The translations under genes were made by a program, and so were the position numbers. Below the pieces are notes generated by a model. That model had not been told where the DNA came from, did no database searches, and saw only the letters and a program-made list of their open reading frames with translations. This document shows positions 20,335-25,029 of a DNA stretch of 42,299 nt, piece after piece (the stretch's first letter is position 1; each line of letters opens with the position of its first letter). The DNA comes from Dehalococcoidia bacterium (GTDB lineage Bacteria; Chloroflexota; Dehalococcoidia; GIF9; AB-539-J10), in the NCBI GenBank assembly GCA_046483735.1, contig JAWOCP010000072.1, forward strand, positions 1 to 42,299. Reading direction: 5' to 3'.

Positions 20335-20685
20335 TCAAGGTATCAGGCCTTCCAGTACTGACCTGTCAGCACCGAAGTGCACGTTATCGCCAATACGAAC
20401 GATGGGTCTGCGGATAAGTCGTGGCTCTTTAAGCATAAGTTCAATGAGTTCGTCATCACTCAGGTTCTCCCTCGACAATCCCAGTTGCTTGAAGCTTGGG
20501 CTTCTGAAGTTTAACATTTCGGAAGCGGACCTGCCCTTGAGCAAATCCCTGATTTCATCCCGCGTAAAAGGGTTCTTGAAGAAATCGCGCTCGTTGATCT
20601 CCACGTCCTTTTGCGAAAGAAACTCTTTCGCTTTGCGACAGGTAGTTCACCTTACCCAGCAGTAGAAGTCCAGCTTCGTAGCCAT
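20335..20685 (-). CDS. ArsC/Spx-family thioredoxin-fold selenoprotein (UxxC), in-frame TGA at 20647..20649
   Basis: AAGGAGG RBS, then MATKLDFYCWVR-U-TTCRKAKEFLSQKDVEINERDFFKNP...EPRLIRRPIV. The TGA sits at the first Cys of the family CxTCRKA motif. Confidence 0.85.
20613..20631 (-). promoter_or_regulatory. Candidate bacterial SECIS hairpin for the UGA at 20649
   Basis: GCGAAAGA-GUU-UCUUUCGC: 8-bp stem starting 15 nt after the UGA, loop begins with GU. Confidence 0.65.
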
Positions 20686-20722
20686 CTGATCATCCTCCTT
20701 TTCCATCGTAATACTGCCATTA

Positions 20723-21124
20723 CTATGATCCATACCATAAGTAATTGATTCTCGGCGTTTCTGCCCACCCATACTTTGAGTAATAACAATAATCCTTGGC
20801 CAATAATGCTGCCCTGTGTGAAGCATGGAACTCTTCAATACCAAGCCACCACGGATAAGCTATCTCGCATCCGGCGAGGTCATATATACCCAGGTTGTTC
20901 CGATAGCCACGCCTGACCCATTCCTCGACCATCACGTTTGAATACAGTTTGAGTGCGTTTTCAAAACCCGTCCACATTCTAACGATTGGGTGATTTGACC
21001 AGCCACTTCCAAGGGTGATCGCGCGTACAATCTGAAATGCCTCCACTCTTTGCTTGCCCAGCCGTTGTCTGTCCAAAACGGCTGCTGATTTATCGAATTC
21101 GGGGTATGGTAGAAACGTCTGCAT
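20723..21124 (-). CDS. Pyrimidine-dimer DNA glycosylase-like (MSMEG_6728-type) protein
   Basis: MQTFLPY..F..SA..LDRQRLGKQRVE..QI, WSNHP, PWWLG..EFHASHRAALL.KD. The track labels it +, but CAT at 21122..21124 and CTA at 20723..20725 show it is on the minus strand. Confidence 0.85.
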   Translation of the reverse strand: MQTFLPYPEFDKSAAVLDRQRLGKQRVEAFQIVRAITLGSGWSNHPIVRMWTGFENALKLYSNVMVEEWVRRGYRNNLGIYDLAGCEIAYPWWLGIEEFHASHRAALLAKDYCYYSKYGWAETPRINYLWYGS

Positions 21125-21283
21125 TTCTGAATATCTTTGCTAGATGAACTATACTGAATATTCTATACGGGTGCCCGTCACCTTTTCCGGAACTGCCGGG
21201 CCACGGGAGTCCTGAATTCACAGTCGAGAACAGATGGCCCCAAGGTTAGCCTCATGATCGATGGAAATATGCAGGAAGGAGCA

Positions 21284-21307
21284 GTGCCCTCTTCACGAGA
21301 GGGTCAC
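21284..21307 (-). promoter_or_regulatory. Candidate SECIS hairpin after the UGA at 21319..21321
   Basis: GUG-A-CCCUCU-CGUGA-AGAGGG-CAC; loop begins 21 nt after the UGA; GU at loop positions 2-3; no poly-U tail. Confidence 0.45.
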
Positions 21308-21462
21308 TTTGCCACCTGTCAGCAGCCGGGTTCGCCGGGATGCCCGCAACAGCGCTGTCGCCTGGCTATCTTTATGGCATTGTTGCGCAGAACAAGGTAG
21401 AGCTTTCTGCGGAGAGGCATCTTAACCGACATATTTGTGAAGATTCCCTGTAGTATTGACAC
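21304..21462 (-). CDS. Unannotated basic, Cys-rich microprotein: 47 aa to TGA 21319, or 52 aa if that UGA is read as Sec
   Basis: AAGGAGG RBS 4 nt before GTG 21462: MSILQGIFTNMSVKMPLRRKLYLVLRNNAIKIARRQRCCGHPGEPGC-(U)-QVAK. Below the size cutoff of the ORF track. Confidence 0.7.
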
Positions 21463-21584
21463 GGTTCCTCCTTACACATCAGGTTGGAGTCCTGTCGTAA
21501 CAACCTGGTTTCTGCGGATTCCCGTTCAGAGTTAGCTGAGTTGCATTGCACATATACTCCTGCAGCTCTTTTGCCACCGCAGCA

Positions 21585-22070
21585 TCAGCAGATAGTGAAT
21601 TTCCGCTTCAACTCAGAGAGTTGCCTGACGTGCGATTTCTCCTCGGCTATGATCTTGTCCACTGTTGACTGTGCTCGCTGAGGCATTATCTCTTTCATCG
21701 TATAGTAGAACAGTATGGAATCCTTCTCGGCGCCTATACCCAGTTCCAGAGCCTTAATATCGCTGTCCGCCCCGGTCGCCATTTTGCTGTTGATCAAGTC
21801 ATCGCTGAAGACAGCAGTGTCAACCAGTGCCTGGACATAAGCAGCATATTCCTCGGTACAGGCCTCTGTGATTTCGTATTTGTCTGCTTCGGTCAACATG
21901 GCCTGGAAGGTCTGAACATGCTCTCTTTCCATATCGGCAAGATACCGAAAGATCCTGCGAGCTTCAGCACTATCGGCTGCATCTGTCAGGACATCGTAAA
22001 AGGCGAGCCCCCTTCTCTCATTACCTATAGCTATGTTGATAAGTTCGCTGGCAGAAAAAGCGACAGACAT
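21585..22070 (-). CDS. Ferritin-like/rubrerythrin-family diiron protein
   Basis: AIGNERRGLAFY, LADMEREH, AEKDSILFY, IAEEKSH (paired ExxH). AAGGAGG RBS. Confidence 0.9.
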   Translation of the reverse strand: MSVAFSASELINIAIGNERRGLAFYDVLTDAADSAEARRIFRYLADMEREHVQTFQAMLTEADKYEITEACTEEYAAYVQALVDTAVFSDDLINSKMATGADSDIKALELGIGAEKDSILFYYTMKEIMPQRAQSTVDKIIAEEKSHVRQLSELKRKFTIC

Positions 22071-22104
22071 TTCTCAATTACCTCCTTGCTTTTATTCAGT
22101 CTGC

Positions 22105-22369
22105 TTGGTTTTGATTTTGCCATTCCATTTCGGCCATTTTATACCGACAAGTAGGGATTTTCACCTCCGACACCCCCCTTAGAACAAGGAGGCTAAGGAG
22201 GGTTATCTCCTTATTCATAACTCCCCTGCCCGCCGACGCCACAGGCTCGCCTGCTGGAGTCATACGGCGAGCAGGCTCAGGCGGGCCAGTCCCTGTCATC
22301 TTAAGAGGGGCAATCTGTAGTTAGACTTCCCCATTATGACCGAGCCCGATGAATCGGGCAACTACGTTT
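22105..22369. repeat. Composite REP/MITE-like element, copy 2, with a nested palindromic insertion of about 60 bp
   Basis: Colinear with 7775..7980. The extra segment 22228..22286 is bounded by gcccgcc/ggcgggc and has an inner gctcgcc/ggcgagc pair. Confidence 0.85.
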
Positions 22370-22541
22370 CTTGGACGGCTTAGTGAATATTGTACGACTT
22401 TGCAGACAATCAAACAAGTTATGCCCGGTGTCTGTGGCGCCGTAACCGCTTCCTATGTCAAAGCATTTGTAAGAATACGCATGGCGCAGGCTGTCCTTGA
22501 AACTTGTCAACGCTCTTCGTGACATATAGAATGGCAAAGAT

Positions 22542-23637: not shown

Positions 23638-25029
23638 ATGAATAAGAAGGTAATGGTTATCCTGGCCAACTGCGCCGACATTGATGAAGGCTATGGCTTG
23701 CTGGGCCCGCAGATGGCAGCCACCATTATCCAGGACAATACCGACTATGAGTGTGTGGTAGTAGCTATAGGTCACGATTTTGATAAGGAACGCATCAAGA
23801 AGAACGTATTTCAGGTCTTTGGCAGCGAGAGGTCGATTATTGGCTTCAGCAGCCTAGGAGGTCGTCCTGAGCTGTGGGAGCTGGCCAGGGAGCTGAAGGC
23901 GGAAGGGGCTATAACGATTCTGGGTGGTCCTCAAGCAGACGTCGATTATGCAGGAGAGACAGGTTGGGAACGACATCCTCACCGATTTCCCGGGCTAAGG
24001 GATAGCTTCAGTCTCGCTTTGCAAGGACCTGCTGAGCAGCTAATCCCCTTTATCGATTTTCAGGGCGGAGAGGTGCCTGGTGACATCCCGGGGGCGCTTT
24101 TCACTCAGAATGGCGAATGCCGGATAAATGAGCGGGATAGGTGGAATGGAGATTTTCTTGGGAAGGTCAACTGGGGGAATCTGTACAGGCTGGGCCCATC
24201 GGGACTGGAGCCGGTGTCTGTAACCAGTGCTCAGGTGGTGCAACAGATAGGGTGTCCTTATGCTGCCAGGACGGTTAGGGTCAGCGTTGATTATCCAACT
24301 AACCTGGAAGACGCCCCCTTCGACAAGAGGGGCCAGATATCCCTCAACCTCCGGGGTTGTAGCTTCTGTGATGTCGCCCGGGATAAAGGGTTTGGCGGTA
24401 ATCTACCACTCAACAATGTGCTGGCACAAATAATCAACTTACCCGAGGATGCGGAGGGGACAAAAATCCCCTTTGAGTTGATAAACGAGGCATCACTGGC
24501 CACGCTGCCTGAATTGCTGTCGGCTATCGAACAGCAGGGGCTGAGGATTTCTCAGATGGAGCTGGTCAGCCGGGCCGATTGGCTGATAATGGGCGAAGAG
24601 AAACTCCGCGTTTCCTTGAAGCTGGCCAGGGCCATGAACGCACGTGTCCTTATGTCGGCGGTAGGCTTTGAATCCTTCGCCGACTCTATCTTGAGGAATT
24701 TGAATAAGGGCTATACGGTCGATACAAACCTCTCCGCCATCAGGCTCATGAGGCAGCTAAAGGAAGAGTTCCCGGATAACTGGTTCTATGCGACCGGCGA
24801 CGGGGCAAGCCATGGCTTCATGCACCCCACCCCTTGGGATTCCACGGAGACTGAGCGCGAGACGGGTAGCGTCATATTCGCTTGCGGTCTGAATCGGGAT
24901 ATTCTTCCCAGGCTGAGTATTCCGCTAATTATCCATCACGCCTGCGGGTTGGCCGATTGGATAAGAGAACTGGAGATGGCGGAAGGGATAGCACTGAAGA
25001 GAAGGGGCTCTATTATTGAGTGGTGGTAG
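23638..25029 (+). CDS. Radical SAM-like protein with an N-terminal B12-binding-like domain and a split Cys motif
   Basis: IIGFS, TILGGPQA, GPAE; GCPY-x31-GCSFCD (CX34CX2C); SRAD, VGFESF..ILRNLNKG, PTPWD. Confidence 0.65.
   Translation: MNKKVMVILANCADIDEGYGLLGPQMAATIIQDNTDYECVVVAIGHDFDKERIKKNVFQVFGSERSIIGFSSLGGRPELWELARELKAEGAITILGGPQADVDYAGETGWERHPHRFPGLRDSFSLALQGPAEQLIPFIDFQGGEVPGDIPGALFTQNGECRINERDRWNGDFLGKVNWGNLYRLGPSGLEPVSVTSAQVVQQIGCPYAARTVRVSVDYPTNLEDAPFDKRGQISLNLRGCSFCDVARDKGFGGNLPLNNVLAQIINLPEDAEGTKIPFELINEASLATLPELLSAIEQQGLRISQMELVSRADWLIMGEEKLRVSLKLARAMNARVLMSAVGFESFADSILRNLNKGYTVDTNLSAIRLMRQLKEEFPDNWFYATGDGASHGFMHPTPWDSTETERETGSVIFACGLNRDILPRLSIPLIIHHACGLADWIRELEMAEGIALKRRGSIIEWW

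Follow-up and report, generated by a model that had tools for sequence, protein, structure and literature searches.

Does an apparently empty gap in the genome of a Dehalococcoidia bacterium hold a gene, and does the UGA codon near the end of that gene stop translation or encode selenocysteine (Sec)? The gap spans 460 bp between a rubrerythrin-like gene and a pyrimidine-dimer DNA glycosylase gene, both on the minus strand, within a stretch of 42,299 nucleotides (nt) of contig JAWOCP010000072.1 (assembly GCA_046483735.1), hereafter the window. An initial annotation had described here an AAGGAGG ribosome-binding site (RBS), a GTG start, an open reading frame (ORF) of 47 codons with a CCGHPGEPGC-TGA tail, and a read-through extension QVAK. 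All of these are present, and all elements of the micro-gene lie on the minus strand, which the initial annotation had left unstated. The ORF up to the first TGA (21319..21462, 47 amino acids (aa)) ends ...RRQRCCGHPGEPGC-TGA, and with UGA read through the product of 21304-21462 is MSILQGIFTNMSVKMPLRRKLYLVLRNNAIKIARRQRCCGHPGEPGC-U-QVAK. With considerable confidence, we regard as the best explanation a 52-residue selenoprotein gene that belongs to a family with Sec and Cys forms and may have a metal role.

That the gene is real beyond chance follows from its homologues and not from the window alone. A search with the window peptide found homologues in 35 of 61 related genomes, many at expectation values (E) of 1e-13 to 1e-28, and a profile found them in 155 of 401 genomes sampled across the class. 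A pattern scan of 185,579 species genomes gave 517 relatives, of which the best 80 were fetched. Moreover, a profile search of 1.84 billion representative proteins returned 419 clusters (50% identity) at E up to 0.001, and among the best 150 listed of these there was no protein longer than 132 aa and no fusion to a larger domain. Family proteins are 47-70 aa long with the N-terminus MPxxxAFF, and the carriers, where named, are Dehalococcoidia, other Chloroflexota and Desulfobacterota-type metagenome-assembled genomes. The database name of the homologues is nearly always 'hypothetical protein', apart from a few IMG entries with an unrelated automatic YbiA (DUF1768) label; ESM Atlas likewise returned hypothetical-protein clusters only, with scores of 0.86-0.89 that serve as leads only. 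Judged by homology, the family is common in Dehalococcoidia and was previously unnamed.

The frame itself is constrained. Across 95 distinct homologues the entropy at codon positions 1, 2 and 3 was 0.57, 0.40 and 1.39, and single-nucleotide codon differences in the gene frame numbered 31362 synonymous to 5505 nonsynonymous. Four other frames showed the reverse pattern, and the antisense frame that shares third positions gave 23416:17464. The minus-strand frame is under purifying selection. Homologues have an RBS of the GGAGG type at the same position, and close homologues carry ATG in place of GTG. The consensus reads MPxxRAFFTNMSVPMPLxRKLYLVFRNNxIKIxKRQxCCGHPGEPGC[U/C], with N10, P16, K20, C38, C39, H41, G43, E44, P45 and C47 invariant in 101 sequences and the motif variant CCGN.G[EQ]PGC in distant relatives. 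On this comparative evidence the gap holds, at 21304-21462 on the minus strand, a real and unannotated gene for a protein of about 50 residues; the missed Cys-motif microprotein that had been proposed is borne out by its homologues and by purifying selection.

The codon that follows ...PGC was read at the DNA level in 154 loci and proved to be TGA in 115, TGT or TGC in 38 and TTG in one, and never TAA or TAG, as expected of a site that is nearly always TGA or Cys. The first set of 114 hits, which includes some genomes twice under two handles, comprised 75 TGA, 24 TGT, 14 TGC and the single TTG, the last in a degenerate copy; with duplicates removed, 65 Sec-type, 25 Cys-type and 1 other distinct protein remained. 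A distant set of 40 loci, taken from among those that matched less strongly in the class sample, contained the motif in 38 loci, and all 40 instances were followed by TGA. All three stop codons serve as the true end of TGA forms (TGA 29, TAA 26, TAG 14; in the distant set TAG 20, TGA 11, TAA 9).

Conservation continues past the UGA. Of 65 Sec forms, 41 have Q as the next residue, 23 have E and one has R, so that Q or E stands there in 64/65, and E follows Cys in 25/25 Cys forms; the window's own tail, QVAK, is short. Tails with at least two His occur in 20/65 Sec forms and 11/25 Cys forms, and tails with at least three His in 17 of the 40 distant Sec forms (for example ...GSHHHHHHDE). Further His-rich examples are U-QAAASTPGPGESAGHRHNH, U-RVDGGPGAGSHHHHHHDE and C-EGSSAKPHSHG, and the longest His run is HHHHHHH. 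Natural Cys forms include a ...GCCE type and a ...GCCEGSSAKPHSHG type. Database proteins reflect how the site is called: among 212 of them, 127 stop exactly at ...PGC, 21 continue with C and 5 with W, these CW... proteins running into His-rich tails. Reading TGA as Trp is rejected as a gene-caller artefact (TGA=W code) that occurs in these five entries only. Hundreds of database entries break off at the Sec codon or were missed by gene callers. Haft and Gwadz, in their preprint, require of a new selenoprotein family at least 10 examples, 100% TGA at the site and homology through the site; set beside that wording, the present family shows no TAA or TAG in the 154 loci and in-frame conservation past the UGA.

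The hairpin downstream of the UGA was the second line of evidence. In the window its upper stem pairs CCCUCU (21303-21298) with AGAGGG (21292-21287) around the loop CGUGA (21297-21293), and a lower stem of 4 bp, AGUG/CACU, pairs 21308-21305 with 21286-21283, leaving a bulged A at 21304. With the U of UGA numbered 1, the G of the loop falls at nt 26. Folding of the 50 nt that begin with the UGA gives -21.8 kcal/mol, where shuffled versions average -13.75 (z -2.67; 3/200 shuffles as stable). On 72 distinct TGA forms RNAalifold returned 4 pairs, all with compensatory changes. In a 7-pair helix that we specified ourselves, 80.5% of cells were paired versus 65.8% in column shuffles, and 0/500 shuffles reached the observed value. 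Double-change cells numbered 98 versus 38 in shuffles, and sliding the partner by 1-3 columns brought pairing down to 41-61%. No fewer than 90% of rows keep the loop G and U. A strict rule, which asked for 5 or more pairs with 3 or more of them G-C and for a loop of 3-7 nt containing GU, was satisfied by 62/72 distinct Sec forms, 2/27 Cys forms and 62/1440 shuffled controls. The loop G stands at nt 26 in 45 of those 62 Sec forms. In the distant set the strict hairpin was found in 34/40, with the loop G at nt 23 in 24/34. The corresponding loop positions in the E. coli fdhF hairpin are G23 and U24.

Thus the covariation that the initial annotation had called for is present, and so is its hairpin with a GU loop and without a terminator (a scan of 20600-22400 gave 0 terminator-like sites). 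By comparative criteria the post-UGA hairpin is a selenocysteine insertion sequence (SECIS). In many members, that of the window included, it lies wholly or partly behind the true stop codon, which makes the family useful for testing gene finders and the rules by which bacteria insert Sec.

The distribution of the Sec machinery matches that of the codon. The window's genome, a 1.82-Mb draft (91.5% complete, 7.3% contaminated), encodes selA, selB (76.3 bits), a tRNA-Sec next to selB (77.4 bits) and selD, which has a TGA of its own and a loop with GU at about nt 23-24. On separate contigs there are two selD-like genes that both contain an in-frame TGA (G000:C50:969-1895 and G000:C104:1236-1574); given the 7.3% contamination, one of them may come from another organism in the bin. 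Among the 61 relatives, selB was found in 9/11 genomes with a TGA form and 0/19 with a Cys form; for 50 named loci the figures were 36/45 and 1/5, and in the distant set, which has no Cys forms, 38/38. Over the three samples this gives selB in 83/94 TGA-form and 1/24 Cys-form genomes, totals that are tallies and not independent counts, since the first two samples share some genomes. In the class sample selB was present in 306/401 genomes (a tally that includes the unpublished G298), and the Sec/Cys state was read for 40 loci of the 155 family-positive genomes. The predicted tie of TGA forms to selB-positive genomes and of Cys forms to selB-negative ones was thus recovered. Moreover, the contrary outcome that had been named in advance, with homologues ending freely in TAA or TAG, TGA forms in Sec-negative genomes and no conserved hairpin, was not observed.

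Within the window's genus selB occurs in 4/36 sampled genomes, and the Cys forms of the genus (CCE-stop) differ by TGA to TGY, CAG to GAG and a new stop. Five of them (L007, L008, L015, L016 and L034, genus g1, without selB) retain the old post-UGA sequence and hairpin. From this pattern the CCE-stop forms look like a recent Sec-to-Cys replacement after loss of the machinery. One genus with TGA forms and selB beside Cys forms without selB would show such a replacement in progress.

We therefore propose the following route, based on the comparative data. A hairpin starting 15 nt after the UGA, with GU in its loop, would recruit SelB and tRNA-Sec, which would decode the UGA after Cys47 as Sec. 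Translation would then add QVAK and end at the second UGA, so that in this short-tailed form the hairpin would lie past the true stop; lineages without Sec machinery would have Cys at the Sec site. Several observations weigh against decoding as Sec. The window's single-sequence fold is weak evidence because the longer 81-nt piece is not unusual (z -0.44, 57/200 shuffles). The strict hairpin rule is failed by 10/72 Sec forms, which by eye have shorter stems or GGC/GGA loops, and the hairpin is kept in two to five Cys forms of the window's genus, where it could be a relic or could have another role. The genomes are related, hence the counts are not independent events and kinship inflates any statistic. 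Lastly, selB was not detected in 11/94 TGA-form genomes, all of them draft metagenome-assembled genomes, two 69% and 85% complete and nine without a reported completeness. Taken together, we consider that the UGA after Cys47 is very probably read as Sec, and we infer insertion of Sec into the product from the coding frame, the Sec/Cys alternation, the SECIS covariation and the link to selB.

The mechanism is ordinary bacterial Sec decoding, and the family is new to the inventories checked. Searches of Pfam-A (E up to 10) and NCBIfam release 20.0 (E up to 1) with the Sec and Cys forms gave no family match. The nearest approach was the CCG cysteine-rich domain (PF02754, HdrB-like), which one Cys form matched at 15.0 bits (E 0.028) and the others not at all; membership is rejected, as the best score falls under the gathering cut-off of 20.6. 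The family is absent from the 119 prokaryotic selenoprotein families and subfamilies of Table 1 in a May 2026 review (PMC13188914). Nearly all of these are given there with a model accession, and none of the listed NCBIfam or Pfam models matches it. Nor is it mentioned in the accessible parts of the deep-Sep paper or of BSepDB, the latter described there as a collection of known families only. A literature search with the motif string found no mention, and a prior mention in Haft and Tolstoy 2025 or in candidate lists without models is possible. The bacterial selenoproteome would therefore gain a family missed by current models and by the latest inventory, and one among the shortest selenoproteins.

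Three known systems resemble it. KCU-star/DUF466 proteins (NF033934, PF04328) are likewise small, stand-alone and functionally uncharacterised. They too carry a vicinal Cys pair or Cys-Sec at the C-terminal end or close to it, Cys-Cys in E. coli YbdD and YjiX and Lys-Cys-Sec in Campylobacter forms, and their SECIS must likewise be placed at the end of the coding region or past it. Unlike them, the present family shows no sequence relation (0 NCBIfam or Pfam hits) and no transporter linkage, an ABC transporter not being recurrent among its neighbours in 101 distinct loci. Between 1 and 35 residues follow its CU, and a further CC pair stands ahead of it within the motif CCG[HN]xG[EQ]PGC. SaoC (NF040734, of the SAO organometal locus) shares the CC/CU alternation at the C-terminal end and a hairpin with a G-containing loop after the UGA, and was also 'dark matter' before its recognition. 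However, SaoC proteins have a mean length of 158 aa and a signal or lipoprotein peptide, and their gene is invariably part of a nine-gene locus; members of the present family have 47-70 aa, no signal peptide by inspection, no fixed locus and no hit to the SaoC hidden Markov model. Animal thioredoxin reductase carries a C-terminal Gly-Cys-Sec-Gly tail on a large flavoenzyme. The likeness to its G-C-U near a flexible C-terminus, by motif only, suggests by analogy a selenylsulfide redox centre, although the family's product would be a free peptide without a flavin domain.

What might the peptide do? Its tail has vicinal pairs CC and C[U/C] seven residues apart (CC-x7-C[U/C]), a G-E-P-G turn and His or Asn between, and its body is very basic and amphipathic. 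As the body is as conserved as the tail, a specific partner is suggested. The product is expected to consist of two short basic-rich helices and a flexible C-terminal C-C-G-H-P-G-E-P-G-C-U-Q. Some distant members have N-termini such as MC..H.H, and together with the His-rich tails these indicate metal binding. In ArsD, As(III) is bound by vicinal Cys pairs that lie close to each other in the sequence, and HypB, CooJ and UreE bind Ni through Cys-rich together with His-rich segments. The family is like these proteins and like MbdU in having vicinal thiol pairs a few residues apart and poly-His stretches; unlike a relative of any of them, it shows no homology detectable with Pfam or NCBIfam. A CU motif has already been linked to metal binding in MbdU (PMC13188914 table), and Haft and Gwadz, in their preprint, describe the CU dipeptide as uncommon and as clustering in mercury and organometal systems. 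On this model the Gly/Pro turn would bring the CC and C[U/C] pairs together, with His/Asn and the His-rich tails, to bind metal, and the peptide would be a small metal buffer or chaperone whose conserved basic helix docks to a partner. Ni, Co, Zn, Cu(I), As(III) and Hg(II) are examples of the soft or borderline metals and metalloids in question, and we put the chances that the peptide binds one at about even.

Four points count against a metal role. An AlphaFold2 model from a 101-row alignment is of low confidence, too poor for a fold search, and has a mean predicted local distance difference test score of 59.5, with helices at 3-11 and 17-34 and a disordered Cys tail. No metal gene is a constant neighbour in the 101 distinct loci. 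Most members, the window's with its QVAK included, have no His-rich tail. Lastly, the rubrerythrin, desulfoferrodoxin, MsrA and glyoxalase neighbours fit a redox role equally. More tentatively, and with somewhat less than an even chance, we suggest that the family comprises free-standing Sec metallopeptides of ~50 residues, with a CC-x7-CU claw, a basic helical handle and often a poly-His tail, in which Se serves as a metal ligand. If so, the peptide may capture or hand over Ni or Co for corrinoid, hydrogenase or carbon monoxide dehydrogenase enzymes, or take up toxic As, Hg or Cd, and Se would act as a metal ligand, not as a redox catalyst, to be swapped for S when a lineage drops the Sec machinery. 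Were metal binding correct, the family would offer a small, tractable peptide for Se as a metal ligand and a pointer to metal handling in Dehalococcoidia, relevant to dehalogenation and sediment carbon cycling.

Among the alternatives the one that survives best leaves Sec decoding unchanged and concerns function: GC-U and CC would form a selenylsulfide/disulfide relay carrying electrons to or from oxidative-stress enzymes. This is possible, though we think it distinctly less likely than not to be the role. Most known selenoproteins are redox proteins (PMC13188914). Over the 101 loci the recurrent neighbours include rubrerythrin-like and heliorhodopsin genes (8 each), TspO (5), and MsrA, glyoxalase and a 463-aa pyridine-nucleotide disulfide oxidoreductase (4 each), and desulfoferrodoxin domains lie beside the micro-gene in two loci (L021, L030). 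Heliorhodopsin neighbourhoods are reported in one study (PMC8612252) to be enriched in oxidative-stress genes. In the window, too, the micro-gene stands between a rubrerythrin-like gene and a UV-repair glycosylase gene, followed by a probable thioredoxin-fold selenoprotein gene. However, no neighbour is constant in the 101 loci, the stress-gene counts come without a background rate, and the commonest neighbours are of another kind: S-adenosylhomocysteine hydrolase (15), a GGACT-fold protein (14) and a sugar-nucleotidyl transferase (12), with MTHFR in 6. Moreover, a pure redox relay does not explain the poly-His tails. The metal and redox roles are not exclusive, and we would rank metal binding as the most likely role with a redox relay second.

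Very unlikely, in our judgement, is a ribosomally synthesised and post-translationally modified peptide (RiPP), with the helix as leader and the Cys/Sec tail as core, as in SCIFF/ranthipeptides or selenobacteriocins. The small size, the conserved N-terminal part and the Cys-rich C-terminal part would suit such a precursor, and a radical S-adenosylmethionine (SAM) gene, scoring below the cut-off, lies 2 kb away. That gene is on the other strand, however, and is not conserved beside homologues of the micro-gene. Radical SAM, protease and exporter genes are absent from the 30 commonest neighbour clusters of the 101 loci, no NCBIfam precursor model was matched at E up to 1, and RiPP cores do not usually show the near-invariance that this 'core' has throughout the class. 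The evidence thus leans against the modified-peptide precursor that the initial annotation had offered as an alternative, with no maturase recurrent in the 101 loci.

We give scarcely any credence to the UGA being an ordinary stop, in which case translation would yield a Cys-rich peptide of 47 residues and the hairpin would serve in RNA stability or termination. Gene callers do end 127 of the 212 database proteins there, the window's tail after the UGA has only 4 residues, some Cys forms keep the hairpin and its 81-nt context folds unremarkably. However, an ordinary stop does not account for a site where TAA and TAG never occur while the later stops are mixed, for Cys at the site in genomes without selB, or for in-frame Q/E leading into His-rich tails. 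The hairpin has no U tract, and its loop GU is conserved at a fixed distance. A terminator was dropped as an explanation after the scan of 20600-22400. Least of all, and to a practically negligible degree, do we credit that no protein is made and that conservation stems from an RNA element or from one of the two plus-strand ORFs that overlap the site (21254-21400 and 21261-21425; 48 and 54 aa), for synonymous changes dominate in the minus-strand frame only, which contradicts the plus-strand ORFs, Rfam gave 0 matches, and the RBS and start codon are conserved.

The preferred selenoprotein gene and the genes around it are listed in Table 1. Over the whole window Rfam gave 0 matches at gathering score, and no tRNA was found in it. 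The rubrerythrin-like gene is possibly in the same transcript as the micro-gene, to judge from their orientation; the scan of 20600-22400 showed no terminator-like site between the two. A likely selenoprotein that had been placed about 600 bp away is real: the ArsC/Spx-family gene contains a U-x-x-C motif (FYCWVR-U-TTC-RKA) whose U is an in-frame TGA at 20649-20647. A hairpin 15 nt downstream of that UGA has an 8-bp stem and a GUU loop at nt 27-29, and folding of the 50 nt that start at the UGA gives -15.8 kcal/mol (z -2.82). The co-directional row of the micro-gene probably holds a second selenoprotein gene here; against the 'ArsC family (seleno)protein' model the ArsC/Spx-family gene scores 37.7 bits, where the cut-off is 85. 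The protein with the weak radical SAM match shows a chance-level likeness (E 0.07) to the 'CUAEP/CCAEP-tail radical SAM (seleno)protein' model.

Table 1. Elements of the micro-gene and neighbouring genes in the window.
Feature	Position	Strand	Evidence or remark
Putative micro-selenoprotein coding sequence, 52 residues	21304..21462	-	GTG start 21462-21460; true stop TGA 21306-21304
Ribosome-binding site AAGGAGG	21467..21473	-	4 nt upstream of GTG; direct sequence reading
UGA as predicted Sec codon, residue 48, after Cys47 (...GC-U-Q)	21319..21321	-	aligns with Cys codons
Start of Cys motif, residues 38-43 CCGHPG	21334..21351	-	continues E44-P45-G46-C47-U48 to 21319
SECIS-like hairpin	21283..21308	-	folds, covariation
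Rubrerythrin/ferritin-like protein, 161 aa, upstream, co-directional	21585..22070	-	Pfam Rubrerythrin 49.5 bits
Pyrimidine-dimer DNA glycosylase, 133 aa, downstream, co-directional	20723..21124	-	Pfam Pyr_excise 85.8 bits
ArsC/Spx-family selenoprotein gene (probable)	20335..20685	-	Pfam ArsC 69 bits; TIGR01617 85.3 bits (cut-off 75)
Weak radical SAM match, 463-aa protein	23638-25029	+	Pfam 25.6 bits, cut-off 29.5
CHASE2-domain adenylate/guanylate cyclase, 623 aa	18341-20212	+	adjoins gene row

Some members of the family differ from the common arrangement. In two loci (L158 and L162, genomes G292 and G408) the gene occurs as a tandem pair about 290 nt apart, both copies having TGA and long poly-His tails. 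One Sec-type member (L013, G057:C12, ~24596-24730) has an extra in-frame TGA where its relatives have Trp17 (PMP-W-HRKL), which could reflect a pseudogene, an assembly error or something else. Crp-family regulators adjoin the micro-gene in 5 other loci. Lastly, in eight loci (L041, L048, L052, L060, L072, L074, L078 and L094) the micro-gene has downstream of it, at a distance of about 55 nt and on its own strand, the start of a heliorhodopsin gene, in many cases with DegV next in line, and in other loci TspO and Staygreen (Mg-dechelatase-like) genes adjoin it; these neighbours may link the micro-gene to light or tetrapyrrole stress.

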